From positions 144,057-208,056 of the forward strand of contig NMRA01000683.1 of the NCBI GenBank assembly GCA_002633005.1: 64,000 nt of DNA, in the 5' to 3' direction. Each line of letters starts with the position of its first letter. The stretch's first letter is position 1. The position numbers were made by a program, and so were the translations under genes. The notes below the pieces were generated by a model that was not told the origin of the DNA, did not search any database, and saw only the letters and a program-made list of their open reading frames with translations. The stretch comes from Phoronis australis (lineage: Eukaryota; Animalia; Phoronida). This document shows positions 5,830 through 60,762 of this stretch, piece by piece.

Positions 5830-8690
5830 AAGTTTACTGCAGGTGCCGTCACTACAGACTGGATGAAGTTGGAAAGAGGGATAATAACTTGATGTAACAT
5901 TTCTCTTACTCTGTTCATCATGGCGATGATAAATTTTCCGATAAAGGCCGAAGAAAGAGAATGTAGGGATCCGAGACTACAGTCCGGTATCGTGGTGCAT
6001 TTAATGGGAGCATTTACGGACGGCTTGATAATAATTACGGTGATGCATGTGCAAGCTCGGTTGGTGTTGGCAGCACCAGCAGACAATGTAATATGGGTTC
6101 GTTTGAAGTACAAGTCGAGACTCCTGATAATGAGAGGCGAGAAAGTGGTCAACAGATTCACCTTGACCATTCAAGGCGAAGAAAGTCCACCAATTGTTAA
6201 CAACCCCATCAAGTGCCTAGTAGGCAAATGGTACGATGATCTCCTGTGCGACAAGAACAACACCAAGCAGATGGAGACTCAGGTCAAAGAGTGGCTGAAG
6301 AATATAGAGAAAAGCGGTCTTCCTGGCAAGTACAAGGCGTGGAGTTACCAGCAGGGCCTGTTACCTCGTGCAACATGGGGTCTTATGCTGTACGGCATCG
6401 TGATATCTGCAGCGGAGTGCCTTGAAAGAGCAGTAACCAAGTGGCTGGGAGCCCCAAGAAGCTTCACAGAGATTGGTCTTTACAGCACAACTGCAGAGCT
6501 TCAGCTGCCACTAGCGTCAATTACGAAGGAGTTTAAAGTAGCAAAGTGTAGGCTGGTACCAACATTACGCGACTCTAGAGATTCGAAGGTGAGGGAGGAA
6601 GGTGTCATGACGACATCAGGGAAACAGTGGTGAGTGGGCACATCTGTCAGCCAGACGGAGAGCTTGTTACAGAACAGAGATACAATTGATAGCACCTGCG
6701 TAGGACGTCAGGGGTTGGGGACATCCAAGTTCCAACAGTGGGAGAAGGCGAATGAGAGGCATCGGAGAGAGATGGTGTCAGATGTTTGACTGTGGGTTTG
6801 TTTAAAAGGTAGCTATGCTTTGAGATTGTGCGTAGATGGAGAGTGAATAATCAAATCCAGTAATTAATTTATTATATGATAACCCTTAATAATACAAATG
6901 AAACCAATTGTTAATTAAATAATCAAGTACAAAGAGAAACTACGCTAGCGCCCTCTTTAAAGATTACTTTAATCAAACAACCAAAACGGTCAAATGTCTT
7001 ATCTGCTATCCAAGCTAGGACTCTCCACTTGTTGGATGTCTGTCCTGTTGGTGAATCTTCGAACTACACACACACTGTATAGCGACAGTGTACTTGCTGG
7101 TCACCGTCTCTGGTGATGCAACACTTGCAGACAATTTCTTCTACCCGCGACTCTTCTTGCTGGTCACAGTCTCTGGCTGATGACACAACACTTCAGGTAG
7201 TATATTACTATCCACAATGCAAGTGACAAGCTCTTTGTTAACTTACTGTTCGTTAACCCTTGCCCTTGCCAAGATCCTTTCTAGGATCTTCCACGAGATG
7301 GCTCTGTCGTACAATTTCCTCTGTACACTGTAGCAAGTATTTATGCTTCAACTACTATAGCTCATCTAATTATCTTGTTGATTTCAGCCCATAATATAAC
7401 ATTCTACTTATTTAGTGATTGGCTAATAAAAACCACATGATCCTATCCACTCATATTATTGGCTGTTACAATTTGTTCTCAGAATTGTCTAGAATCTCTA
7501 GAGTACTTTGACCCCAGAACCCAAAGTTGTAAACACCATCTAAAAATAGATTTTGACGTTAAAATACATGTCAACAAGTGTGACCCCATGACTTAAAAGT
7601 ACATATGCACAAATTTTGGGCAACTTAAAATGGATCTATTCTTACTAATTACTTAATCAATATTTATTCTGACAGATGGTCCAAGCTGAGGTGAGAGCAT
7701 CAGCAGAGGAAGTGCGGAAAGCTAAATCAGTCCAACTGAGCCAGAGGGAACATGGACCAGGTGGAATTTTCCAGACAGGAAGATATTGTGTGGAGACATG
7801 TGGAGGATGGAGTCAATGCGTATTCAGTTTCTACTCCGCTCGGCTTACGACGTGTTACCATCGCCTGCGAACGTTCTACGTTTGGGCCTAGTGAATAACC
7901 CAGCCTGCCAGTTGTGTGGAGGAACAAGTACACTGGCCCACATCTTATCAGGGTGCAAGATGACACTTCAGCAGGGCCGATACAGATGGCATCACGACCA
8001 AGTACTGAAGACCCTAGCAGACATCATAGATGGAGAGCGTAAGGCAAGAGCAATACAGCCTAAGGCAAGTAGCCACATACAATTCGTTAGGGCAGGTGAG
8101 ATACGGAAGAAGTCACGTCAGCAGACTTGCATTCTGGGTGGAATAAGCTGGGAAATGAGAGTAGATCTTGGAATTAGAAAGCTTGTGTTCCCGAGTATTG
8201 TTGAAACATCACTGCGGCAAGACATCATTCTGTGGTCGGATATTCGTCAACGCATTGTGATTATAGAGCTCATAGTCCTTTGGGGGGGAAGTATGCGAAG
8301 AAGCCCATGAGAGGAAGTTATCTAAGTACAGCGAGCTGGCGGAGATATGCAGAGCTTGAGGCTGGCGGACTTGGTTGTTTCCTTTAGAGGTGGAATGTAG
8401 ATAATTCCCTCCAAGATCTGTACGGTGGTTGCTGGAGAAGATCGGTGTCCGAGGGGGAAGGAAGAAAGCTGCTGCAGTGAGAAGACTGGGTGAGACAGCT
8501 GAGAGGACATCTTGTTGGCTGCGGTAACATCAGAATGAAGGAAGTTGGAGGCCCCCGTCATGCACAGTGGGTTGGCCGCCTCTGTGAATTCACCAGTGGA
8601 GACCGTTATGATTCAGGGACGAAACCAGTCAAGGAATCTGGAGGCCATCTGACGATATCAAGCCAGGCTTTCAAGTACAAGTTAATGTAT
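5830..8690 (+). mobile_element. 5'-truncated, degenerate non-LTR retrotransposon with restriction-like endonuclease (R2 group, Hero-like)
   Basis: RT C-terminal half (AFTDGL for FxDD; KSGLPGKYKAWSYQQGLLPR), CCHC knuckle CQLCGGTSTLAHILSGC, RWHHDQVL and RLE motif RQDIILWS...IEL. Stops and frameshifts; split by a solo LTR. Confidence 0.85.
6776..7674. mobile_element. Solo LTR (899 bp) inserted in the Hero-like LINE
   Basis: Termini TGTCAGA...TCTGACA with perfect 5-bp TSD GATGG (6771-6775, 7675-7679). The LINE sequence resumes directly after it. Confidence 0.85.
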
Positions 8691-12468: not shown

Positions 12469-13767
12469 CGAAGGTCGTTCAATAAGTTCTCGGCCTCACC
12501 AAGAAAACAGAGAAGCAGGTTAAGTTTTTTCACCATAGTAAAATTTCATCTTTTAAAACAGCACTGCGTTCATGTTGAATTAGTACGGTCAACCGCCGCT
12601 GGGTGTCGCTGCTTCAAAAAGCAGAAGACAACACCTTTAGCAACATGGAGATAACGGAGACGAAAGCCGTCATGACGTATTTGGGTAAAAAAGGATGAAA
12701 CCAAAAGATATTCATGAAGAGATGCGAAAAACACTCGGAGCAGACTCCCCGAACTACTCCACTGTAAAAAAGTGGTCAGCTTGTTTCAAGAGGGTTAGAA
12801 AAATCGTTGAAGATGAACCTCGTCCAGGACGTCTCAGATTATCGACCTCCAGTGAAAATGTGCAGAAAATTCATGCTGTGTTATGAAAGACAGGCGAATG
12901 ACTATTCAACATTTGGCAAACACTGTTGGCATCAGCAATGGGTCCGTCTCTAACATTTTGAGTGAAGATTTGGGCATGAGGAAGCTGAGTGCACGATGAG
13001 TGCCAAGAATGTTAACTCAAGATCAGAAAATGACCAGAATGCAAATTTCAAAGGAACTTCTAGGAACATTCCAAGCAGATCCAGCCAAATTTTCCAGAAG
13101 ACTTGTAACCCAGGATGAGACATGGGTCCACCACTTTGACCTGGAATCAAAACAACAAAGTAAACAATGGAAGCATGTGGGTTCCCCAAGCCCGAGAAAG
13201 TTCAAGTTGGAGGCCTCTGCCAGCAAAGTTATGGCATTTGAGTTCTGGGACAGCGAAGGTACAGTGTATTCAGATGATCGACTACTTGCGACGAGGACAC
13301 ACTGCTACTGGGAATTACTATGCATCACTTTTGGAAAAACTAAAAAAAGCAAACAAGGAAAAGAAACGCGGGAGGTTTCGGGATGGAGTGCTGTTGCTTC
13401 CAGAAAACGCACCTGCCCAAACTACCCAAGTTGCGGTGACTGAAGCAACTAGATGTGGCTTTGAAATCCTTCTGCACCCCGCCTATTCTCCAGACCTGGC
13501 CCCATCTGATTTGATTTGTTTCCACATTTGAAGGCCAACATGCTGCGTGGACGCCAGTATATGAGCGATGGTGACGTCATGAGTGCAGTGGAGAAGTATT
13601 CTGAGGGGCTCGACAAAAGTTTCTTTTACGAAGGCATTGCAAAACTGAAGCACAGATGGAAAAAATGCTTTGATGTAACGGGAGATTATATTGAAAAATA
13701 AAAGTCAAAATTAGTTGCTATCGCGTTGTTTTCTGGGTGAGGCCGATAACTTATTCAACGACCCTCG
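12469..13767 (+). mobile_element. Full-length mariner element with pseudogenised transposase (12645-13701)
   Basis: ~40-bp TIRs CGAAGGTCGTTCAATAAGTT.../...AACTTATTCAACGACCCTCG flanked by TA. Motifs (W)VPRML, TQDETW and YSPDLAPSD. Stops and frameshifts. Confidence 0.95.
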
Positions 13768-28205: not shown

Positions 28206-28440
28206 TGTGACGGGACGTTCGTAAAATGTAACAGAGCAAGTCTCCACTGAGCATCAAAAATGTGTATTTCACTTCATCAGGTATACGCTCAGTTCAGTTA
28301 CACATGATAACGACCAGTTTCATGTTGGCAAAGGAAGGAAACACCCTTCTCCCAAGCCTGTCGCTAGCGAAGTGCCCGACACATACAGTCGCTCCGCATG
28401 CCCACGTAACAAAGGCGCACTGAGACGCAACAAAGACGTT
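28206..28440 (-). repeat. Rearranged 5' LTR: first 19 bp direct, then ~214 bp inverted
   Basis: 28206-28224 equals the start of the 3' LTR. 28227-28440 is the reverse complement of 32822-33035. Confidence 0.9.
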
Positions 28441-29128
28441 CATTGAGGGGCAGTGCCGCTGAATTGCTTGAATCTGATTTGTCTGTAAACGAATTGCTTG
28501 GTAAGTTAAAGTCTAGATACGGTGATGTGTTACCTGTTGGAAAAATTGTTGAAAAATTCTACAGTTCTAGACAGGATAAAAATGAAAGCGTTACCGAATG
28601 GGCTGCGCGCTTAGAGAAATTAGTAGTTCAAAAGAAAATGTCCAAATCATGCTCTATTCCGAAAGAGGCGCTGCCAGCTGTGCTAAAATCACATTTTGTG
28701 TCTGATTTGCTGTCGAATGACGTCAGCGTTGGTCGAAAGCATTTTGTGGAACGCAATAGTGAGGAATCATTTGACGAGCTACTGATTTGCGCCCGTCGTT
28801 TAGACACTGAGTTCAGCAGAAAATCGCAGTCACATCACTCTCTTGATAGTGGTGATAAAACTGGTAAAATGGTCACTATGATAGATGCTTTGGCTAAAAG
28901 AATAGAGAAACTTGAAGGTAGTTTCACTCGAAATAGGTCCAATGTAGTTTTCAACGCGAACTCTAAGTTCCGCGGACAACCCTATGGTAATGTGAACTGG
29001 CAACGTTCAGAACAACAAGGTATTGGCCAGTCTACTGATGTGCGGGCTGACAACTCTTTACCCAGATTTGACGGCGTTTGTTTCCGGTGGCATAAATACG
29101 GTCATAGGGTTGCCAATTGCACGGTTGC

Positions 29129-29191
29129 TTTAAACTTCAATCGGTCGTCGACGGGGGGGGGGGCTTCCGACCGAACGCATGGAAAGCCCCC
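29129..29191 (+). promoter_or_regulatory. -1 programmed ribosomal frameshift signal (slippery heptamer plus H-type pseudoknot) at the gag/pol junction
   Basis: T TTA AAC in the gag frame; 5-nt spacer; stem 1 TCGGTCG/CGACCGA; stem 2 GGGGGCTT/AAGCCCCC. The protease ORF is in the -1 frame. Confidence 0.8.
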
Positions 29192-32100
29192 TCAGTAGGC
29201 TTAGTAGGGGAGTCCTTTGAAAAGGAATTTATGATTGCAAATGTGAGATGTATATGTTTACTCGATACAGGTTCTAGAGTAAGTACGATCTCCGAGAGCT
29301 TGTGTCAGCATATTGGTTTGTCTGTGCTGCCTATTTCAGATATTACTGGACCTTTGTGTGTTGAGTGCGCTAACGGAAAAGTTTTGCCTGACAAGGGTTA
29401 TGTTAGTGTCACTGTTGGAGTACCCGATACCGATGAGTCAATTGATGTTTTGTTTTTGGTTGTTCCAAACAATTCTTATAATTTCAGTGTTAATGTTATA
29501 GTGGGTACTAATGCTTTGCGTGTTTTGATCGATCTCGTTGATAATGACGATCGCTCGGACTGGTTGCTGTTGTTGAAAAATGTTATGTTTAATCGTGAAA
29601 CCTCTCTTTCAGGCGTTGTTAAGACTGACATACCTGTTACCATTCCGTCTGGAATGTCCCATCGATGCTTGTATTTGTGTTAACCCATGTACATCTTGTA
29701 GTTTACAGGTTGTCACCGAAGAGTATGGTTCACTGTCACTTCCTAGTAACTTGCAGGTGTGGCCCACATTGCATGAGATTAACCCTGGGGATCATATGAT
29801 TCAGCTGAGAATTCTGAGGAGTTCATAATAAGCCCAGATTTAAGTATTGAGCAGCGCAGCCGAGCCGAATGATTTGGATCTTGGTCATGTTACTCAGGCT
29901 CAGCATAAGATACATTGACAAGGGATGCTCCTTTTAAACACCGACATCGCTCTATTCCTCCTAACATGTTGGATGAAGTTAGAGCTCACTTAAAGGATAT
30001 GTTGCAACTGGGGGTTATCAGACCGTCCACTAGTAAATATGCTTCTAGTATTGTCTTAGTACGTAAGAAGTCTGGAGAGTTGCGATTTTGCTTAGATTTT
30101 CGTAAATTGAACGAGATCACGGTAAAGGATGCTTATGCTTTGCCTAGTGCGACTGAAAATTTGCATACGCTCCATGGTTCTCAATATTTTGCAACTCTTG
30201 ACATGAAATCTGCTTATTTGCTAGTAGATATAGCAGAGGAAGACAAGCATATCGCGGCATTCACTGTAGGTCCACTCGGAGTGCAATAGACTTCAGTTTG
30301 ACTTAACCAATGCTCATGCAACGTTTCAACGAGTGATGGAGATGTGTATGGGGGACTTGTATTTGTCTGAGTGTTTGATATTGTTGGATGATATTTTGGT
30401 GTTTAGTGATACATTTGAGAATCATCTAACCCGATTGAGAAATGTGTTTCAACGCGTATGTGAGTTTGGTATGAAACTTAAACCGTCAAAATGTGAGTTC
30501 TTTAAGCAGCGAACTGTGTATTTGGGTCACGTGATTTCTCAACAACGGGTCGAATGTGATCCCGATGAGATAGAGGTTGTGTTGGATTGGCCTAATCCAA
30601 AGTGTGTGAAAGACTTGCAAAGTTTTTTAGTTTTCGTTGGGTTTTATTCAAGACATTGCATCAATTGCTCAGCCTCTTCATGCACTTACAAAGGGAGTAA
30701 CGGGTCGTAAACGTAATTCTTCTGATACCTCAAATGGACTGTTTGTTTGGGGTGATAAAGAAGAGTATGCTTTTGAAGAACTTAAACTCAGGTGCACGAG
30801 TAGCCCTGTACTGGCATTTGCGGATTTTACGCAGCCATTTTCTGTGACGCCAGCATGACGTTGTTAGGTGCGGTATTATATCAGGAGTCGGGGGGATTGA
30901 ATAGACCCATTGCCTTTGCGAGTCGTTGTTTGAGTGAAGCCGAGAAACGTTATCCTGTACATAAACTTGAGTTTCTGGCTCTTAAGTGGTCCATAACGTC
31001 TAAGTTTCACGATTACCTATACGGCGGTTTGCCGTTTGTAGTGTACACTGACAATAACCCTGTTACATATGCATTGTCTACAGCTACTCTGGATACAGGC
31101 TCTCAGAGGTGGGTTTCTGAGTAAGCGAATTATAATTTTCAGATTGTGTACAAGACTGGTAAGTCGAACTTAGACGCTGACGAGCTGTCAAGAATAGTGT
31201 GGCCTGATCACGGCCAGGCTTTGCTTTGTGGTGTTACGACACGTAGTGGGTTGGACTTTTCGTCGTCATTCCCTACTCTAACAAACGCCGAATTAGTGAA
31301 TTTACAACGTAATGATATTATTCTTGGTGGGGTGATGGAATGCTTGCGAGCAAAACGTAAGCCTGATGACACCGCAAATAGCGGTGTACGGAAATATTTG
31401 AAGTATTGGAGTGATCTGTACTTAGATCGGGAATGCTGTTCATAAACAGGGTCTCTTCAGTTGATAATGAAGTTGTTAGTATGTTAGTTGTGCCACAGTC
31501 GCTACGAAGTGAGATTATGGTGTCTCTGCGCACGATGCAGCTGGGCACCAAGGGTATGAGAGAAAATTTTCTTTGATTAGCAATCGCTACTTTTGGGTAG
31601 GCATGCAAAAAGATGTGGCAGACTATTGCAAATCATGTGCGAGGTGTCAAATTTCTAAGGGTCCATACAAGAAACCGAGGACTACCATGAGTCACTTGAC
31701 TGCATGTAGACCCAATAAAGTGTTAGTCGTTGATTTTACTGTTCTAGAGCCGTACAGTGACGGTAGGGAAAACGTCTTCTTGGTGATGACTGACGTATTC
31801 ACGAAGTTTACGCAGGTTGTTGTGACACGCAATCAAACTGCCCTAACTGTTGCCAAGGCTCTGACTGAGCAATGGCTCAATAAGTTCGGTATTCCGGACA
31901 GGATTCATCATATAGCGATCAGGGTCGCAATTTTGAAAGCGATTTGGTTAAACAGTTGTGCAAATTATATGACATTCAGAAATCCCGTACAACCCCATAT
32001 CATCCTGAGGGAAATTCACAGTGTGAGCGTTTTAATCGCACATTGCATAATCTGTTGAAAACTTTGCCAATTGATCACAAGCGTAAATGGCCGCAGTTTG

Positions 32101-32747
32101 TGCATGATCTGGTGATGTCGTATAATTCTACTCCACACAGCACTACTAAGTACTCTCCGTTTTTCTTGTTCTTTGGCAGGGAACCGAAATTTCCTTTGGA
32201 TTTTCCCCTGCGGTTTGATGCAGCAAATCCGGCATACTGTTGCACAGATGAGTATGTAAAGTTAGAGCAGATAAAATGAAAGACACTTGGCAGCGTGCTC
32301 GGTATTTTACTGACACTTCGAATGATAGAAATAAAGCTAGAAATGATACACGTGCGTTCGCCCAATCACTTCCGGTTGGTGCAACGGTATTTCTGAGAGA
32401 ACTCAGTATCATAGGGAGGAATAAAATTCAGAATGCATTTGGTTCAGTTCCTTATTGTATTGTCTCTCGGAGAAATAATGTGTATTCTGTGCGGGCGGCA
32501 GATGGTGCCGGACCGATTAAAACTGTAAATAGGTCGGACATCTTGAATGGTAGGGACTTGGTAGGTCTCTAGTATTTGGAGTTTTGCTGCTGTTGAGAGC
32601 GCGCCAGGCGTTGTCGTGCTGAAAGTGGAATGTGCGTTGTGATGTCTGTAGCCAGCGAGGAGTCTGAATGATTTCCATTTCACTGCGTTTTGTTTTCATA
32701 TTGTATGTTAATGATGTCGGGACGACATTTTTTGTTAGTGGGGAGAT

Positions 32748-44147: not shown

Positions 44148-47100
44148 ATGAAGCGTTTGGTAAGATTAGCTGGCTGCTTAAAGTCATTAGTGAAGATTTT
44201 GAGAGTGCAGTGCAACCGTTTTTGTAATGCCATCAACATTTTGTTTTTAAGAAAATATCTTAATTGGCGTAGGTGGTCATTTAGTAAAGGTTCCGTTTTT
44301 ATAGACAGTTTCTGCCTTCATGTTTGTGTTTTGTTATTGAGTGATTTGTAAGAAATTTTATTTATGCCTACTGGGAGTTATCAGTTTCACGTTAAAATGT
44401 GAAAATATACCGGAACACAGAGCTAATCACCCTGTAAACGTAGACAGTTTTAAAGAGATCGCTCGGTGTTTTAAACTAAGTTGATGTCTCTCTAATAGTT
44501 AGTGACATTCCAACTTCTTCGTCTGTGTTCTCGTGCAGATTAGACAGACAAAATAAAATTGTCTCTCTCTCTTTACCAAGACCTACCTAGTGATAAATTG
44601 AACACCACAGTAATGTTTTAATGAGTAGGCTAGTTTTTCCAATCTAAGTTGCCTCTCAAACCAAATGTTAAAGAGCAGAGCCCAAATTCATGAAAATTCA
44701 AGTTTGCCATCTGTTTCACCATCAGCTGTGATTTTCAACTAAGTCACAAAAACAAAATTACCTGCAATTAACGAGACTCAAGCCCAAACCACTTCCCAAC
44801 CTATTTTTCTTGTTAAGGGATGTAAACCTATCTGTACATTCATTTCCGTAATATCAGTCCCCTACATTTAGGTTCTAGCATGTGTGTTCCTCGCCGTGTG
44901 CGGGACACTGGTGTTTGCAGTGGATGACAACCTCGAGGAAGAAATCGAGTACACGGACGACAACTCCGTCGACGAAAAAGAGCTCACAGACGACAATTCG
45001 ATAGAGGAAAAAGAATTCACAGACGAAACCGACGGTGATGAAGCGGAACAGCAAGTGGACGAAAAGGAAGAAGAGCCTGATTTGGAGGTGGAATCTAAAG
45101 GCGTCCGCTGCCGCACGAGAAGGATCACTATTCGGAGGTTCAACTGTTACGTAATTCGCGGCCGACCTATCCGTGGTAGAATTTGCACTCGTCTTACCAA
45201 TGGGTAAGTACGTTCGTATTTCTTTCGTCATGCTCATGTTGCAGTTTTGTAAAATGATGGAAATCCAAGGACCTTCAAATCTTATAGCTTTTTCTGATGA
45301 TTTAAAAGCTAATGTTTACAACGCTAACATTTCACAGAAACTTTAGAACAAATCACTTTAGTTCAAAATGACGTATTCACGAAAAAGTTGAAGAATAACA
45401 ATATGGGACGGTGGTGTACCTCGAGGTACATAAGTTAATAAGTCCACGAATCAAAGATTGGATAGATTTGAAATAACCTCAAGCGTATACCTAAAAAAGG
45501 TCTAAAGCCACTGTTCGGGCCTGTAAGTCCCTCAAAATGAGGCGAGTCCTAGTAGAAATAATGGCGGTTAATTACCGGCGGACAACTGGGGCTGGGGGTA
45601 TATAGCCCTCCTTTTTTCAGTGCTGCATCGCCCAGCTATTAAGAAAGTATTTGGAGTTGCTTTGAGTAGAGTCCACTCTTCTGGCTTCTGTTGTTTTACT
45701 TTAAAGATTTTGCTTCAAATACTCGTGACCATCAGACAAATGGGAATTGTCAAAATTCTGTTTCGCAACGGCATAGTTTAGTCAAAATTTCTCGTCTTCA
45801 GAGGACACGAGCCTTTGGAGTCGTGTATTCACTCTGGGACCGAGATAGTCGTGAATACGTGACTTTGGGAAGAAGATTTCAATCCATTTTCGGTCATTTT
45901 AGAACCCGGAAATTTATTCAGAACCAAAACAATGGCTTCGTTGAGTTTCTTCATTAGTGAAAAACCCACTGAGTGTACTTTCTGGAACGTATGTATTTTT
46001 GTCATGTTCTGAGCTTTTCTTGGACCAGTTTGTGACTTAGACGAGAGCAGCCAGTAAAACTGTGGCCTTAGCACAAGAATTTTAAAAGTAAAGTAGAAGC
46101 GTTAGTAAACTGAGAAGTAACCCAACACCGGCTAATGAAGTTGGCACCTCATTTCAGTTCTCTCCTTGAATTGAGCAGTCTACTGAGATGTCCCTCCTTT
46201 TCTGATCTTCGTGTCGCATAGACTATTTCCAACGACGTCGACACTCGGATCCATCAGGCGACGCGCAATTGCAAGATTATTGCTTTAAAATGCCGAGTTT
46301 TCGCGTACCAAGTGATATACGAATAAGACCACTGTGAAAGTACCTGTACCGTTCTTGATGCACGTGAAAATTTGACTTAAAACATGGTCACGTGACAAAA
46401 ATAAAGACACAGGAGTAAGAAGCATATTTTTAGAATCCTCAATCTTTTTACTTTCAGCAAGTATATAATTTAATGGTTAAAAAAACGTTAGTTCATTTGA
46501 GCTCCAACTGTTTTGATTTCTGGTCTCTCCCTCACAATGCATTTCGACGTCTATCCGCGCAGTCTGTTCTCCACCTGTGTTACCCGACTGGAATATTGTG
46601 GATATTTGTCTTGCGAATGGTTTGGTGACAATAAACCGAAACGTCGATTGATATAATGCATTTTTACATATGCGCTGATTTTGCAGTTCGTTCCCAATTT
46701 TTGGCATAAAACAAATGTAAAAGATAACTGGTCGTTCACTTTTGTAATTTTATTAGCGGTTACCGGTATGTGGACACCGATAATGTAAACCACAATACTC
46801 CTGATGGTTGATACTCTAAATACGGTTTGCGTATCTTTTAACATACGGAAATTTCAGAGGAACGAAACGTCAGTGGGTCAAATGATAAAACAAATATTGA
46901 CCAATCCCTTAGGCGTATGAGATCACGTAGACCTCAGTAGGATAACTTTGCTCTATCTTGGCTCATGCCTGATATGACCTTCGATATAGGTTCGGTGACA
47001 TGATACCATGGTATCATGTCACCGTCACGGTCGAGATCGGTCCTTTTGTACATCATCATTTTTAGTACATTGGATTAAAGTGAACCTCAGGATTATACTG

Positions 47101-52849: not shown

Positions 52850-54350
52850 AGGCGATTGCCACCTAAAGAGCAACCTGTTTTGTATCAATTTAGATCAATA
52901 ACAGCAACTTCAGTTGTTTAACCTGACACCTAACGGCAGACGGAGGTGTTGAAATTAACCAATGACATATTCGGTTCTAACGCAGTCTGTTCAGCCGTTC
53001 ACAACACGCTTACTGGTGTCAACTTATCGCTTGAGTTCATCGTTGTACATCAATAAATCATCAAAATTCGATGACACCCCTTACAAATACATCGACTTCT
53101 TGAACAAACGTGTTGTTTTATCTCACTGTCATTTGAACGTACCGTAGCCTACAGAGTTCGGCAGGCCAATTTCCCGTGGTTGATCGCGGGAGTTTTTATG
53201 TTAGGGGATAAATTCGAATCATTCTTCCGTGAAATACAGACGGGGGAACATAGCTGTGATTTTTTTCAGTTCTAAACACACCTAACGCTTGTTACTCTCC
53301 GCCAGTGGCTCGGAACCCGATCAGGCCTGTCGCGCCGCCGGGACTGTACGTCACAAACAGAAACCAGCCTTAGTTAAAAACTAAACCTCCAGTAACGATA
53401 AAACTATAATAGTGAGCCAAAAAATAATGTGCACGTAATTATTTAGGTGAATTTTCCACCAAACTTAAAATCTACTCACTGGTCGGGGGCCGCGAAGTCA
53501 GGTTCCCCTTCCACCGAACCGTCAGGGCAAAGGTTGTACAGTAACAATGATTTGAATAATGCATTTGTATATCTAAATAAAGATTCCCCTAACATGTGAC
53601 CACATCATATAAAAACCAGTTATTAATTGTTTCACAACAGCTTTCTGTCAGCAAACACTGAATTAGCATGCGCTCACACGGCCTCGCTGCCCGGTCAATT
53701 ACTTTTCATGCATCTAAAGCCGGTAACGCAGTGGTTTATTATTGCTGGCTTTTCAAAACATTTCCACTCTGGAATACTCCAAAAGCATTCCAAATTGTAT
53801 ATAATGAAACGAACTTTGTTTCAGTTTTATATAATGAAACGGACTTTGTTTCAGTTTTACATAAGCATTGGTTAGGGTGAGAATAATTTATTTTGAAAAA
53901 GAACGCAGAATAATAAGCGTCTACATGGCACAGGCAACAGAAGATATGGATAGTTCTTTGGTAAGACGGAATTCGTCAGAGAAATCACTGTCGACGAAAT
54001 GCCGGCCACTGACACGGAGATGTTGCATGGCCTCATACTTGCTATTAACAGCGCACTTTTCATTATTCACTACCGCGAGCCACTTCCTAAGCATTTCAGG
54101 CTCTCGAGGAAGAGAAAAAAAACGATATACCCGCTTTCTTCGCAGCTTCATAGTTCGGACAAGCGGGAAGGATGCACCCCAATATAGAGCAGCATTCACT
54201 CTGCAGATGAACACTGACGTCGTTTCTCACCTTCCTCACAGGTTAACGCGACACCTCTCGGCAAGGTGAGGTCGACCGTATCAGAGCACGATGTGAATAT
54301 AGACCGATTAAGACGGTAAAAAGACTAATTAAATCGGGTGGCATTCTCCT
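52850..54350. mobile_element. Internally deleted Kolobok-like element with THAP relic
   Basis: Ends AGGCGATTGCCACC / GGGTGGCATTCTCCT. THAP-like FFSLPREPEMLRKWL...LRVSGRHF on -. The paralogous position in copy A is an empty TTAA at ~3819-3822. Confidence 0.8.
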
Positions 54351-55285
54351 TTTATGAAGTTCTTCACATCTGTCATTATGTCAGAAGAACCCCATAGCAC
54401 GTAATAAGTTTAAGACAAAACTATTAATAAAAAGTAAACGAGGTTACATTACATGAGGAAAGCGTGTTTTTTCAAATGTTGCGTCACGAGGTTGAAAGTT
54501 TTTGATACGTCGCGCTTTTAGGCAAAAAGGTCGTTTTTACAGTTCATGAGAGAGCCCAAATCGGCAAGCCTCCGGATTTTGACATGGGACTCGTATAGGA
54601 TTCTCTGTTTATCGCAGTGAGATATCAGTTCCCTAAAAACAATAGAGGATGTTGCATGGCTCTTATCATATATGATGAGGCAAATATAGTTCGGCCCACT
54701 CAATTTCAGCAGCCACATCATTCGTAAAATGTTTGGTAGCGGTTGATGTGATACGGTGGGTATAGTGTAAAATACATGCTCTGGAACGTTATCCGTTCTG
54801 TTTACCTTGAAACAGGGTTCAATCCACTGAGCTTGCCCCTAATTCTACGTGGCTGTATATTATTCCTGGGAGTTTTTCCAAGAAGCTCTGCGATATTTTT
54901 TGCTATATTTTCAGACATTTATGACAGATTTTTGTTTTTAGATTGAACGACTTTACATTTTATGCGAGCGTGTTATGATTTCTACGAACTCTTTATGAAA
55001 AACAGAACGGTCAATTAACTAGTTTGCCGACATTTTTGTCTTTAGGATACTGGAAAGGGAGTCCAGCGTTGCTTGCGTGTTTGAGCAATTTTCGCACCTA
55101 CTCCGATGTACCGTGGCAGAAAACCAACAACATTTGTCCTGGCACCTTCCAATTAGCTGTTATGGAATGCTGGTTTGCCTTGTGGGGAATATTTGTGTTC
55201 CCAAACATCACGTTACGAGGCCAAAGGTCAATCTTTAGGGGATTGTTTTTATTATGGATTTGAAACAATGTCAGTCAAACTCACG

Positions 55286-55291
55286 TTTATT
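55286..55291 (-). terminator. Putative polyadenylation signal of the GMC-phosphatase gene
   Basis: AATAAA on - about 140 nt downstream of the stop codon. Confidence 0.5.
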
Positions 55292-55428
55292 AGGAAAAGA
55301 TACATCACAGTGACACCACCTTGTAGGACTTTGCAATTTAAGGTTAAGAATGATGCAAACGTTGGTGAGAAATCCTTAGTCACAGTTGTTGCTCAATCAC
55401 GGCGTTCTCCCTTATAATCAGTGTCTTT

Positions 55429-57630
55429 CTAAAGTTCACTAAAGTACTCCTCAGGAGTGTGGAAAGTGATGCCAACTTTCTCGGCGAACAATTTGTCCGA
55501 GTTGCTAAGATCTCCGGGTCTCCCTGCGGCGTCTCCAACATACACCGCAGTGGACGGGTCAATGGTCTTGAACTGATTCAGTCTGCAGCTGTAAGAATAT
55601 TTTGTGTATGTTAATGGTGTGTAGCACTTTATCGACTGGTCTAGGTATTTCTAGGTATCAAACAAAATATCTGAAAAACTATATATTTTAATACAAAAAG
55701 TATACAGTTTCCGAAAATAGAAAGCCTGTGGAACTTGCTTTTTGAATTTACATGTACATCAATCTGTCATTACTTGGGTCACGTGAATACAAACAACATT
55801 ATCAACTACAATATCAAAACTCATTTGACTTAAATGTTTCTGATAAAATCTCAAAACGGTGTGACAGTTTTCTTAATTGTCATTTCGTTTTCGTTTTATA
55901 CATCTGTTGATTTTTTTTCTTAACCATCTGTAAAAGTCATAATCGGAATATCCCATCTTGCAAAAGTGAAGAATTTTAAAGCCAATCAAATACCGTGTTA
56001 GAGAACAGCGTAAATACGATCAGCTATTTCTGTGATATGATGTTTCGACATTTGCCAAATTTGGACATTTTCTATTGCCCTACATAATCGTAAGCCACGT
56101 AGGACATTTATTTTCTATTTACATAACTGTGGATGTAGGTATGGAATTCAACCATGTAAAAGTACACATTTTCTGAAAGTAGAAAACTTTTAGAATTTGA
56201 TATTTTACGTAATGTTAATATGCTCTTAATTGGACCGCATCTTTTTACTGATATTTACAAAAGGTGAAAATACTTTTATATCAAAAAACCCATAACGAAC
56301 AAAGAAACTTCCGTCAATATAAATATTCGATGTGAAATCACCAAAACACCAATACAGCTATCTAAACAGTCTTACCGTTTTCGTCTTATTTTGATTTCAT
56401 TTTGCTTCCTAAACATTTTGAATGTCCCAATTTTGATGATCTTTCAAGGCAAAATATAATGCATAAAAATAATTTGTAACAGAATTTTAGAGAACAGTGC
56501 AGAATCCGATTTGAATTCGATCAGTCATCTTTGAGATATGATGTACGACGTTAGCCACTTTATCTAATGCCTCACGTGACCTTAATATTCAATGGATGAA
56601 ACGGGATATTTAAAGGTTCATAGTCTCATTAAATTGTGAATATGGAAGTGAAATGCCAATCGCAATCAACCACGGTCCTCCTCCATCATCAGAGATCCAG
56701 TTACTATTACACTGTACAATCTTGCGAATTTCATTATCAAATAACGATTGCGTGATAATTGGAATTGCTAGTTTTCAATATGTGCACAGTTAGTTATTTT
56801 TAACGTGTATCAGTTGAAGTGTTTTCTATAACAAAGCAATTTTTACAAATTGTTTCTTTTTTGGATTTAGCTGTACACACAGTTCTCCAGGACGTCATTA
56901 GGTGGTGCTTGATACAAATTCAAATATTCGTGGTTTTAAAGAGACAGGGCATCTGTAAGTTAACTATGAACTATTCTTCCAGACGATCCTCAATAAGATG
57001 AGACATATTTAAGCACACTCGCTGTGTAGCATTATCATGAAAGTGGTTGCAAAATGCTATACTGTACAGTAGTTATCAGTATAACATATTCCATGTGTTT
57101 GTTAGTCAAAATTTAACGGAAACGCCGTCCAGTAGACAGCAAATGGGCCAAAAAAGGCCTGCACAAGATAACATTTTCCATGCCTGTAATATGTCCACAT
57201 CCCGGTGTCAGGCTTACGAAGATCGTTGTACTCTGTGGCGCCTAGGACAAACATGGGTACACCCAGTTCATTCGTGATGGCTTCAATCTTTGACATCCAC
57301 TCGTCTTTATTCTGAGAGCCGCTCCCGATTCCGGCCTGCAACAAATACGTAAGAGAATGATCAACAACCTACAAATCTTTGAACAATCTCCGGCTTGAAT
57401 TTACTGCAAAATCGTTTAATTCCGTACTTAGGCGTTACATGGTGGTACTGTGCGTAATAGCGAAGGAAAGGCCCGAAAGGCATTTAATTCAGCCATTGAA
57501 TGCGACCCCTACGTGAATCGTTTATAGCAAAAAACCCATCCGGAAATGGAATACGCACATTTGAAACGGCCACGTAGGGGACTCTTAAACTTAAAAAAAT
57601 CCGTTTGGCTTCGGCCTAATATAGATATAT

Positions 57631-57669
<39 letters not shown>

Positions 57670-60600
57670 CATTGAAAAGTAAATGTACAGTGTTTTATTT
57701 ACTATTTCAACTGCCATCTGAAGAAAGACATTTATGTAGACAATACGAAAGTTTGTTGAACAAGCTATCTAATGCCAAGAACAGCTTACTTACAATGAAA
57801 CATGTATAAAAGAAGGTCTGCTACCCAAATACAAAGATTTTTGTATATCTATATGCATATATGGTTCTAACAATCATATTCTTTTGCAAATTACAGAGTC
57901 GCTTGAATATAGCGTGGAAATGAACGTACGTCTGAATGTTTTACCTGGTTGCTCATAATAACGTTACTGATGCCTCTCTTGTGATTGTCTTGTATTTTGA
58001 GTTTGACATTTTCGGATGTGAATGTCCAGTCTTTTTCATCGACAGGGAAATCTCTTCCACTTTTCGTCTTACTAATGGTATTGTCCAGATCAAAAGACAC
58101 CACGTGCTCATTTGAATAAATCCGCCTATTCGTTTCGTAGTAGAGAAGACCGTTGGAGAGCTGTGTCCACCAGCCAGGGAGGGTGTTGAGCGGGGGATAT
58201 TCACGAGAGAAGCGACGACCTGAGCTCCAAAACACAGTCTCGAGGAGAAATCCGGCCAGCTCCTCATACCAGTCAGTGTCTGGGTTGGCAATCATCGAGC
58301 CCGTGCGGAAGAATGCCGAAGATCCCGGGTGGCGGGCGACCACTTTTTTTGTCGCGTAGTAGTCCACCAATGGAAGTGCTAGGTCAGGCTCTTTGTAAAT
58401 CCACTCACGTTTGGAGTCATCCACATATACAAGTATGGAGCATATCTCCGGCTGACAGTTCAGGGTGAAGCAGTGCTCAGACCCACGAACCCTGTTATGT
58501 ACGCACAAGTTGGTATTAAGCAACAGCTGGCAGTCAGAGACACAGTAACATTCTTAGCTATTTGGCATTATCTTTTAATTATTGGAATACAGTGGCTTAT
58601 TGAATATAATTTTCTCTTTTTCTTGGCAAATCACATGCGGAACGTTAGAAAGTTTAGTTAGCAATAGCTTGCAGGAGGGGAAATAACGTGCCCAAAGTAT
58701 TGAACGCACGAAACTTTGTTTCTCAAAGCACACTCTTGACTGAAAATCGTGTTTAATTCCTGTTTTCTACATCAGGTGTCACAAGCTTTTCAAGATTATG
58801 CAACGAGCATCTCAAAACACAACAGATGAAAGTATGTGCATGATATGTTCGTGTCTACTAAAACAGCATACGATTTGTCCACTTAGTTTAACTCCCAAAT
58901 GACGATCTACCTGAGTTTGTCCGAACTATCTTATTATACCATGCTTTTCCATATTTAGCCTGCTCATGTAAAAGAGCTGCGAACATACCTGCCGCCTTCT
59001 CCCTTCCATGAACCAGCTTTCGCCCATAATGCATCGGGATCGACACCTGAGAAAGCTTGGCACCACACGGCAAAAACGTAGGGGGATACCTTATGCTTTG
59101 GAGTCGGCTCTTTTGGATCGGGAGTTGCTTCTGGTCTGTTGAACTTGGGGTAACCTTCAGCATTGCAACCGTCTTTTGGATCAGTTCCCAATGTAGCCAC
59201 AGCTGCTAAGTCTGCAATTTCACGCTCATTGGTGCCTTCGTCGCAAACAAAGGACCATTTAACAATCAAAGCTGAAGTATCTTTCCCTGTTGAAATCCAT
59301 TCAGAGGACACCGACACATTCATGCAATTTGAAGCTGATTTCACAGAGCCCATGTCTATAGTTGCATGACCAGGAGGTAGTTCGGACTCGAAGGCAGTTT
59401 TTTCTCTTGGAATTGTTAAGTCTTTACGAACTGCCACGTTTACGTATTTCAGATATTGGAACTTGAGCATGTCTGCCAGTTTTTCACCCATAGCGAAAAG
59501 AGTAGCGGATGGATTTCCGTCGGTTTGTGTTGCGAAGGCTGAGGCATCACATACTCTGAGATTAGAAACTCCTCTCACTTGTAGAAACTCATCAGCACAG
59601 TCTGGCATTTTGCATGTACCGACAGGGTGAAGTGCAGACACCAGCATTCCACGCAACCATGTGTTCAGCTTGTCGTCCGTATCTATATCCATTCCCGGCT
59701 CAATTTCCCCCAAAATCAGGTCTTTCAACTCTTTCCTAACATTTTTTCCAAAGAACATACTGCGCAACACGTGAATTTGATCTCGATAAAACTTAGAGAC
59801 CTTCTTGAACGATTCTGTTGGTACTCCATCATTAGTGTATTCCCAACCATACTCTACCTCCGGCTTGTCGAATATGTTTGAAGTAAGTGCTTTGACATGG
59901 CCGCGGTACTCAGGCCACTGATCGATGACACGAATAGTACCTAAAGCAGTCAAAGTAATGTTTTTTCTCAGAGGTATACATCATGATTAAATCACTTAAA
60001 TCACAATGTGAAGCAGCACTGTCTTTCATTTTGCTATCAAAATCAATTTCCAATAAATATATGCATATACATATTTAAAGATGTATTTTTATGCTTCTAA
60101 TCATGCTTATGTTAAGAAAGAACTACGTTAATTAAAATGCAGTTGTATTTACTGAAAACTTGTAAATGTGAAAACCAAAAATCCTGCAAATAGGTAACCC
60201 GTGCAGTAATTACGTATATCGGTGGCTCACTGACATAGCCCGTAGCATGTAGTGTTATTCCCCAGCACCATGTCATGAAATTTAATCACTGGACGAGGCT
60301 AGGTGAATTGAGGTGGATGATTTTCGTCGAAAAACTCGTTCTTAAACACATTTGGAAATTTCTAACCTACGTCATATTCAAGTTGTCACTGCAAGTTGTG
60401 TTTCTAACTAGATTGGCCAATTATTACAAAGATAAGGACTTAAGCTATCAGTTCCACTTTACGTACTTGGTTTGAACACAGAATTTTGTCAAATACACTT
60501 TGGTGGAGACACACACGTCTAAATTTCGGCGTATTTCTCAGTCCGCCAAAGAGCAAAAATACAGCAGACGACCAAGAGACATTGAATTGATACATGGAAA

Positions 60601-60762
60601 GAATGTTAAATTCGAGACAGGTCTTCACTTCATCTGTTTGTGAATGATCTTCATCCGAAAAGCGAAGTGCATTATGAATAATTTTACCGTGTGTAAACTC
60701 CTCCTCTTGATAGTTCTTCGCATCATCGTACTGATTAGGACGATCTTTTAAACATAACGGAC
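55429..60762 (-). CDS. 5'-incomplete gene: GMC oxidoreductase C-terminal domain + unrecognised region + PNKP-type polynucleotide 3'-phosphatase (HAD) domain. Exons 60762-60463, 59940-58989, 58491-57945, 57335-57184, 55588-55429
   Basis: GMC motifs PEYRGHV, EIEPG, SALHPVGTCKM, LRVCDAS, GNPSAT...EKLADML. HAD/PNK3P motifs FDLDNTISKTKSG..FP...DW, SNQ, RKPDTGMW, YVGDAAGRPGDLSNSD, FHTPEEYF, then stop. Splice phases 1/2/0/2 are consistent with no internal stops over ~700 codons. The first exon's donor is less certain; the last intron is GC-AG. Confidence 0.82.
57633..57667. repeat. (TG)n microsatellite, intronic
   Basis: Directly visible. Confidence 0.95.

Follow-up and report, generated by a model that had tools for sequence, protein, structure and literature searches.

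Phosphatases of the PNKP type are nuclear and viral enzymes of DNA or RNA end repair, and folds of the SRPBCC/START type commonly hold hydrophobic ligands. In choline oxidase, a well-described GMC flavoenzyme, H466 and N510 are given as the catalytic pair (PMC3541233). Stony corals are described as having a stand-alone, alga-derived PNK3P, a DNA-repair gene of proposed horizontal acquisition, and GMC proteins are not mentioned in that paper (PMC4878875); a second paper concerns a GMC beside dinoflagellate sunscreen genes (PMC9298759). Here we analyze a 64,000-nucleotide stretch of the phoronid Phoronis australis (contig NMRA01000683.1, positions 144,057 to 208,056 of the forward strand; hereafter "the window"), in which five minus-strand exons, A to E, encode the C-terminal part of a GMC flavin oxidoreductase, two linker domains (X1 and X2) and a PNKP-type phosphatase. 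That these form one chain can be regarded as practically settled, because homologues carry GMC and PNK3P together. The architecture is apparently undescribed, although it is built from known domains.

Architecture, gene structure and transcription

When exon C was used as the query, eight of the nine matches (661 candidates) had GMC_N, GMC_C and PNK3P in one chain, and all nine were 60-70% identical to it. With a family profile, 7,998 candidates yielded 45 matches at E<=1e-40, and GMC and PNK3P stood together in 21 of these. Fusions were found in the octocoral Dendronephthya gigantea, in the crinoids Anneissia japonica and Antedon mediterranea, in Amphiura filiformis, in five Mytilus species, in Diplonema papillatum and in the bdelloids Adineta and Rotaria, with a partial one in Paramoeba aestuarina. 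Over about 600-635 columns the window protein shares 54-69% identity with 16 full-length animal forms; for the four protist-type forms the figure is 31-34%. A HMMER search with exon B against 1.84 billion representatives gave three matches at E<=1e-30, indicating that the family is small. An initial reading of the window from its letters alone (the sequence-only reading) had called the fusion unusual and unrecognized. The literature bears this out, in that no description of a GMC-PNK3P chain was found in a search that had subscription journals outside its reach, the nearest paper being that on the stony-coral PNK3P (PMC4878875); the databases do not, since the architecture is present in RefSeq and GenBank models of several phyla, and the linker domain X2 had been overlooked. 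These models are labeled "uncharacterized protein" or carry automatic names (PNKP, ecdysone oxidase-like, L-sorbose 1-dehydrogenase); the labels "PNKP", "ecdysone oxidase-like" and "choline dehydrogenase-like" are misleading.

A scripted join of exons A to E yields 627 codons with no internal stop, and the GMC His and Asn motifs and the four HAD motifs are all present, in agreement with the sequence-only reading. The features of the gene, in the direction of transcription, are:

60762-60688, minus strand: exon A, 75 nt; codes for a variable loop where GMC binds its substrate; 5'-most exon of the gene within the window; AG/GT ends
59940-58989, minus strand: exon B, 952 nt; C-terminal domain of GMC, followed by X1 (beginning near 59446) and the first part of X2 (beginning near 59080); located by Pfam and tblastn
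59629-59615, minus strand: GMC His motif HPVGT, in exon B
59521-59510, minus strand: GMC Asn motif DGNP, in exon B
58988-58492, minus strand: intron B/C, GT-AG, phase 2; interrupts X2 at codon 342
58491-57945, minus strand: exon C, 547 nt; remainder of X2, ending near 58212, then the beginning of the PNK3P phosphatase
58091-58077, minus strand: HAD motif DLDNT, in exon C
57953-57945, minus strand: HAD motif SNQ, in exon C
57335-57184, minus strand: exon D, 152 nt; middle part of the phosphatase, including RKP
57218-57210, minus strand: HAD motif RKP, in exon D
57183-55589, minus strand: intron D/E, GC-AG, with a non-canonical GC donor
55588-55429, minus strand: coding part of exon E, stop included; GDAAGR, C-terminal FSEL (55443-55432) and stop
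55536-55519, minus strand: HAD motif GDAAGR, in exon E
55428-55248, minus strand: likely 3' untranslated region; AATAAA hexamers start at 55291 and 55253

Introns A/B, B/C and C/D have GT-AG ends, and read-through of intron B/C meets a stop at 58964. At the D/E joint all ten donor/acceptor pairs tried leave the frame open, so that an open frame alone is weak proof of that joint; the GC donor is the only one that gives a length matching the homologues. This donor differs from the usual GC-donor consensus, and the intron has read support. Low same-strand RNA depth is found in the 55150-55345 bin, which overlaps the likely 3' untranslated region. Exon A aligns to the homologue P0215 starting at its residue 433, and alignment to homologues indicates that about 430-450 N-terminal residues, the part that binds flavin adenine dinucleotide (FAD) included, are absent from the window. 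The missing exons can be placed, putatively, beyond 64000, as the sequence-only reading had proposed, because tblastn with eight homologues as queries gave no credible match to the N-terminal part within the 64-kb window.

To follow transcription we used three raw RNA runs bearing the same species label (X1-X3), about 18% of each mapped twice, at 95% and at 88% likeness, with a joint listed only if it had three reads. All five exons are covered by reads from one strand, and nearly all the depth lies in the first-mate-plus columns, the pattern that most stranded libraries give for a transcript of the minus strand. Three of the four joints were seen: A/B (59937/60685), with 2, 4 and 0 reads in runs X1, X2 and X3; C/D (57334/57944), with 2, 6 and 2; and D/E (55588/57184, ends CT..GC), with 3, 2 and 19 at 88% likeness. 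The D/E joint was not listed at 95% likeness; most of its reads come from a second, diverged copy, because they carry 7-14 further differences, and support from this locus is thin. The second expressed gene copy has about 88-95% DNA likeness, is strongest in run X3, and has the C/D and D/E exon boundaries in common with the window gene.

The B/C joint (58989/58491), for which spanning RNA reads had been proposed as a check, appears in neither mapping's list, and the depth there is about 1-5. The fusion in P. australis is accordingly suggested by the homologues and not read directly from transcripts. One could suppose instead that exon B stays unspliced to exon C, so that a GMC transcript ends past the stop at 58964 while exons C to E, for the phosphatase, are transcribed separately. 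The unlisted joint, a trace of intronic reads (a slight depth of 0.64 in run X1, in the 58678-58873 bin), the uneven depth of B relative to C-E across runs and the existence of GMC-only genes in Acropora are all consistent with that arrangement. We nevertheless give it very little credence, since the splice sites are canonical and in phase, X2 is conserved on either side of the intron and in the same order as in unsplit homologues, and a listing needs three reads where the depth is so low. The flanks of the intron also align without gaps with most animal homologues. A minor isoform that reads through the B/C intron may exist.

The catalytic domains and the structured linker

The GMC C-terminal domain is recognized on exon B by GMC_oxred_C (PF05199; 66.2 bits versus a cut-off of 24.6, E 6.1e-18), and the exon is 59-72% identical to animal homologues by tblastn. 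The catalytic His and Asn of P0215 align with H466 and N510 of choline oxidase, and identical motifs occur in the window; the FAD-binding domain with its GxGxxG-type motif, which is outside the window, was found in full-length homologues. The GMC catalytic pair thus looks intact, and FAD-dependent alcohol oxidation is predicted. Across the family the usual flavin-side Asn of the GGSSxIN motif is replaced by Tyr. The best structural matches of the GMC part include alcohol oxidases and fatty acid photodecarboxylase, and the nearest solved structures are choline dehydrogenase and choline oxidase. This proximity, with the same His/Asn pair, would suit a role in the synthesis of the osmolyte glycine betaine, in which phosphocholine is dephosphorylated and the resulting choline oxidized. 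Such a role is very unlikely: the site of choline oxidase Glu312, a residue of substrate positioning according to a reference title in PMC3541233, is Ser in P0215 and Ser or Ala in all 16 alignment rows, and the betA equivalog profile gives 150-193 bits, far under its cut-off of 732.

The phosphatase domain PNK3P (PF08645) runs across exons C, D and E as consecutive profile parts 2-54, 58-105 and 112-161, with Pfam E-values of 1.7e-11, 6.8e-9 and 1.7e-13. Three homologues exceed the cut-off of TIGR01664, the DNA 3'-phosphatase profile (148-162 bits versus 107.65), and the phosphatase of the homologue P0001 matches that of mouse PNKP with Z 27.3 and a root-mean-square deviation (rmsd) of 2.0. 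TIGR01663, the profile for full animal PNKP, gives only 118-141 bits against a cut-off of 502.8. Neither an FHA nor a kinase domain was found in the homologues scanned, and the frame in the window stops right after the phosphatase. The animal fusions keep HAD motifs I-III intact (motif I in 20 of 21, the remaining one not having been parsed); motif IV is altered in P0006 and in the Mytilus rows. The octocoral, echinoderm and Diplonema forms have intact phosphatase motifs. Phosphatase activity is predicted from these intact HAD motifs. The domain differs from PNKP in its surface: its net charge has a median of -6 in fusions (n=16) versus +6 in PNKP-like domains (n=33), and the loop after GDAAGR is two residues long in all 13 fusions that were parsed (three were not), the basic loop of PNKP being absent.

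Between the GMC domain and the phosphatase lies a structured linker of about 250 residues. An AlphaFold model of X1, X2 and the phosphatase was made for P0001, which is 68% identical to the window protein (predicted local distance difference test score, pLDDT, 87; predicted template-modeling score, pTM, 0.85). X2, residues 309-434, is the domain that the B/C intron interrupts, and its counterpart in P0001 (residues 115-250) matches XoxI (3CNW) with Z 12.4 and rmsd 2.5 over 128 aligned residues. Similar scores were obtained with PYL9 (Z 11.6) and with PYL receptors and norcoclaurine synthase (Z 10-12). Foldseek matches of X2 to SRPBCC proteins have E of about 1e-6, and its fold matches include abscisic acid receptors, Bet v 1 and aromatase/cyclases. 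X2 is therefore predicted, from the model, to adopt the START/SRPBCC helix-grip fold. No Pfam match to X2 was found in the window exons or in the homologues scanned; hhalign of X2 against the family's own Polyketide_cyc2 copies gave E 0.00094, though with a probability of only 22%, and an ESM Atlas search with the linker gave no usable match. For X1 the best structural match is Z 6.1, from a poor model in which SRPBCC and ferredoxin-like folds tied. Possibly X1 is a reduced version of the X2 fold (hhalign of X1 against X2, E 0.0028, but a probability of 11%).

The likeness of X2 to proteins that commonly take hydrophobic ligands raises the alternative that a lipid-like phosphate (an isoprenoid, a sterol or a long-chain alcohol) sits in the START-type pocket and is dephosphorylated and then oxidized at the membrane of the endoplasmic reticulum (ER). 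The abscisic acid receptors, Bet v 1 and aromatase/cyclases among the X2 matches, and the alcohol oxidases and fatty acid photodecarboxylase among those of GMC, would fit such a substrate. We think it unlikely, as the phosphatase plainly belongs to the PNKP type (Z 27; TIGR01664 above cut-off) and has no lipid phosphatase fold, and a shared fold reveals no ligand.

Cellular location and proposed reaction

The window protein ends in FSEL, which is KDEL-like under the extended rule of PMC2140024. According to that paper, position -4 can be F with the same effect as K, R, H or N, and position -3 can be anything except Pro; FSEL itself is absent from its main text. Tails of this kind occur in 18 of the 21 animal fusions, the window's included, and 13 of them have E at -2; the other five, all from Mytilus and nearly identical to one another, end in the weaker HDDL, with D at -2. 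The tails are HSEL, HIEL, HNEL, HTEL, HAEL, RQEL, RDEL, KVEL, HDDL and, in the window, FSEL. Among the GMC-only relatives 8 of 15 have such a tail; in the control sets the counts are 0 of 39 for PNKP-like proteins and 2 of 141 for other GMC proteins. A hydrophobic stretch precedes the FAD motif in the complete N-termini of Dendronephthya X1, Anneissia, Antedon, Mytilus galloprovincialis and Amphiura; it was scored by 11-residue hydropathy (2.7-3.2), a score of our own and not a signal-peptide predictor. A leader peptide is likewise expected in P. australis from these homologues. The protein very probably enters the secretory pathway, and the leader, the KDEL-like tails and an acidic phosphatase without the basic loop indicate the ER lumen as its likely location, rather than a place in DNA repair.

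The last point bears on a suggestion of the sequence-only reading, in which an oxidase making hydrogen peroxide is coupled to the clearing of 3'-phosphates from broken DNA ends. In favor of that coupling, the phosphatase scores above the TIGR01664 cut-off and its best match is mouse PNKP. The secretory signals tell in the other direction, as do the lack of FHA and kinase domains, the acidic domain without the basic loop, and the placement of the phosphatase in a clade of its own (99) apart from the sampled arthropod PNKPs; the suggestion has become highly improbable.

The explanation we prefer is that one spliced gene would encode a protein of about 1,070 residues, consisting of a GMC flavoenzyme, X1, X2 and a PNKP-type HAD phosphatase, and held in the ER lumen by its leader and KDEL-like tail. 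A small phosphorylated molecule of the sugar type, most plausibly a nucleotide, would first lose its phosphate to the phosphatase; the START-type pocket of X2 would hold the dephosphorylated molecule, and GMC, with FAD, would oxidize one of its hydroxyl groups. As a whole (spliced gene, luminal enzyme, dephosphorylation followed by oxidation of a small molecule) we put this reading at even chances. Dephosphorylation of a sugar or nucleotide and its subsequent oxidation had been one of the possibilities raised by the sequence-only reading. The parts of our explanation are not equally firm. That the substrate is a small molecule and not DNA is probable; that both active sites serve one pathway is slightly favored; and that the substrate class is nucleotides is a tentative guess. 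It is a prediction from sequence that the two sites are active and coupled, and so is the nature of the substrate. The guess at nucleotides is made because of the 3'-phosphatase ancestry, an endonuclease fused in two relatives, and some general facts: enzymes that oxidize nucleosides are known, purines are ligands of some PR-10 proteins, and the Golgi possesses a luminal 3'-nucleotidase. The two relatives, P0187 and P0188, carry an N-terminal non-specific endonuclease (PF01223, E of about 1e-25) in the order endonuclease NS, GMC, X1, X2, PNK3P, Polyketide_cyc2. With P0258, a longer member of the cluster of P0187, they are 1,570-1,880 residues long.

Several observations weigh against this reading, in addition to the unlisted B/C joint and the slight intronic depth. 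The leader of the window gene itself is outside the window, and the tail is missing in 3 of 21 animal fusions and in the protist and rotifer fusions. The charge ranges of the two phosphatase sets overlap (-11 to +6 in fusions, -3 to +22 in PNKP-like domains), and the short loop also occurs in about 9-10 of 33 PNKP-like controls. Motif IV is lost in six of six rotifer-type fusions, with the second Asp of motif I lost in four as well, and some members, such as one in Acropora millepora, consist of GMC alone. The full-length AlphaFold model, built from a nine-row alignment, has a pLDDT of 35, which leaves the GMC pocket without a usable model. As for nucleotides, the endonuclease fusion is found in just 2 of the 15 proteins scanned, and non-specific endonucleases of this type leave 5'-phosphates, for which a 3'-phosphatase is not needed.

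Origin of the fusion and comparison with known systems

In a GMC tree (FastTree) the family forms a clade of its own, in which Acropora-type GMC-only proteins are the sister group of the animal fusions (99), and the two are jointly sister to a Diplonema-type group (97). The fusion looks ancestral, on this tree, because the nearest protist sister group is mostly fused. Protist-type relatives have a clear extra Polyketide_cyc2 domain at the C-terminus, and the rotifer-type forms, which also have a recognizable Polyketide_cyc2 copy, have the order GMC-phosphatase-SRPBCC-X2, with a degenerate phosphatase. The five long ones scored among the rotifer-type proteins (P0189-P0192, P0033 and P0198) have 15-19 N-glycosylation sequons.

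The degenerate phosphatases of the rotifer-type forms, together with the GMC-only members, imply that GMC can do without an active phosphatase. They allow the protein to be seen as a stand-alone GMC alcohol or sugar oxidoreductase of the ER lumen, whose SRPBCC and phosphatase domains play an accessory part (ligand binding, regulation) or perform a separate reaction, and are merely placed together by the fusion. The GMC-only members with KDEL-like tails, which fall in three branches of the GMC tree, and the reordered rotifer domains agree with this. It is harder to reconcile with phosphatase motifs still intact in octocorals, echinoderms and Diplonema, with the prediction of X1, X2 and the phosphatase as a single packed unit (pTM 0.85) and with a fusion that looks ancestral, and we rate it a serious possibility, on the unlikely side. 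Sequential dephosphorylation and oxidation by one luminal enzyme is the reading we retain.

In the phosphatase tree, which left out five long or partial control rows, the animal fusions form the clade (99) separate from the sampled arthropod PNKPs, and the tree does not decide whether the phosphatases of protists and rotifers arose together with them. The full-length tree places the window protein in a 99% group with Dendronephthya and five further rows, and Amphiura with Mytilus (99), not with the crinoids. Echinoderm monophyly is rejected (p-AU 0.015), for a group that was named after seeing the GMC tree and with both branches longish; hidden paralogy accounts for the Amphiura placement as well as transfer does. 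The patchy spread and the tree conflict make the gene a candidate for transfer between eukaryotes.

For a prokaryotic or viral source, which we also considered, pattern scans of limited sensitivity revealed no member in GTDB genomes or viruses. No relative was found among 321 and 112 candidate stretches in GTDB genomes, and viral scans gave one phosphatase-only match among 59 and none among 37; both used two short patterns, which a distant donor could still have escaped. A metagenome scan (7 of 64 parts), likewise made with two short patterns, gave seven partial matches and no fusion, and Mimivirus R135 is a distant GMC match only.

A more elaborate version of events is speculative and on balance improbable: an ER-lumen multienzyme for nucleotide degradation, with a nuclease (in some protists), a 3'-phosphatase, a pocket of the purine-binding type and a nucleoside oxidase, would have arisen by repurposing of a DNA-repair phosphatase for the secretory pathway; suspension-feeding animals and marine protists would have exchanged it by gene transfer, as perhaps would different animal phyla.

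The remainder of the window is repeat-rich DNA of 35-44% GC with transposon remnants. Its other features are:

5893-8310, plus strand: non-LTR (long terminal repeat) reverse-transcriptase remnant
13000-13531, plus strand: mariner-type transposase fragment
28410-32279, plus strand: Ty3/Gypsy-type retrotransposon remnant, frameshifted, with gag-like, protease, reverse transcriptase and integrase pieces
44872-45204, plus strand: exon-like frame (AG before, GTAAGT after)
53921-54226, minus strand: THAP-domain fragment

The frame at 44872-45204 has a hydrophobic leader, a long Asp/Glu-rich stretch and an Arg-rich tail with three Cys. It has no Pfam match and looks like the precursor of a secreted cationic peptide, perhaps an antimicrobial one.

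A PNKP-type phosphatase with secretory signals, fused to a distinct GMC clade, is found in Euglenozoa, Amoebozoa and at least four animal phyla, and a fusion so conserved points to an unrecognized luminal pathway in marine invertebrates. The protein is predicted to be soluble and has two assayable sites, so that its substrate should be directly findable.

Each part of the chain resembles a known system and departs from it. Choline oxidase (2JBV/3LJP), BetA (9LQ0) and the alcohol oxidases have the same GMC_N and GMC_C domains, FAD motif (seen in the homologues) and catalytic His and Asn; compared with choline oxidase and BetA, the fusion has Ser at the Glu312 site and Tyr for the GGSSxIN Asn, belongs to its own clade and carries three further domains. 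Mouse PNKP (3ZVL/1YJ5) shares the HAD-IIIA 3'-phosphatase fold and motifs, at 36% identity and Z 27.3, whereas the fusion is without FHA, kinase and the nine-residue basic loop, is net acidic, falls in a separate clade and has secretory signals. The X2 model shares the helix-grip fold (Z 10-12) with proteins of the SRPBCC/START/Bet v 1 type (XoxI 3CNW, PYL, norcoclaurine synthase, the di-domain StfQ, BexL), from which it differs in being unseen by Pfam and only 6-22% identical. The stony-coral gene of PMC4878875 is likewise an anthozoan PNK3P other than animal PNKP. A similar overall plan is seen in an ESM Atlas cluster labeled "GMC/GMC/HAD-like hydrolase" (68 members, mostly nematodes where known), in which GMC and HAD are joined in about 970 residues; its HAD domain is PF00702/PF13242, not PNK3P, and its score of 0.86 makes it a lead only. 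The nematode cluster is possibly an independent fusion of an oxidase with a phosphatase.

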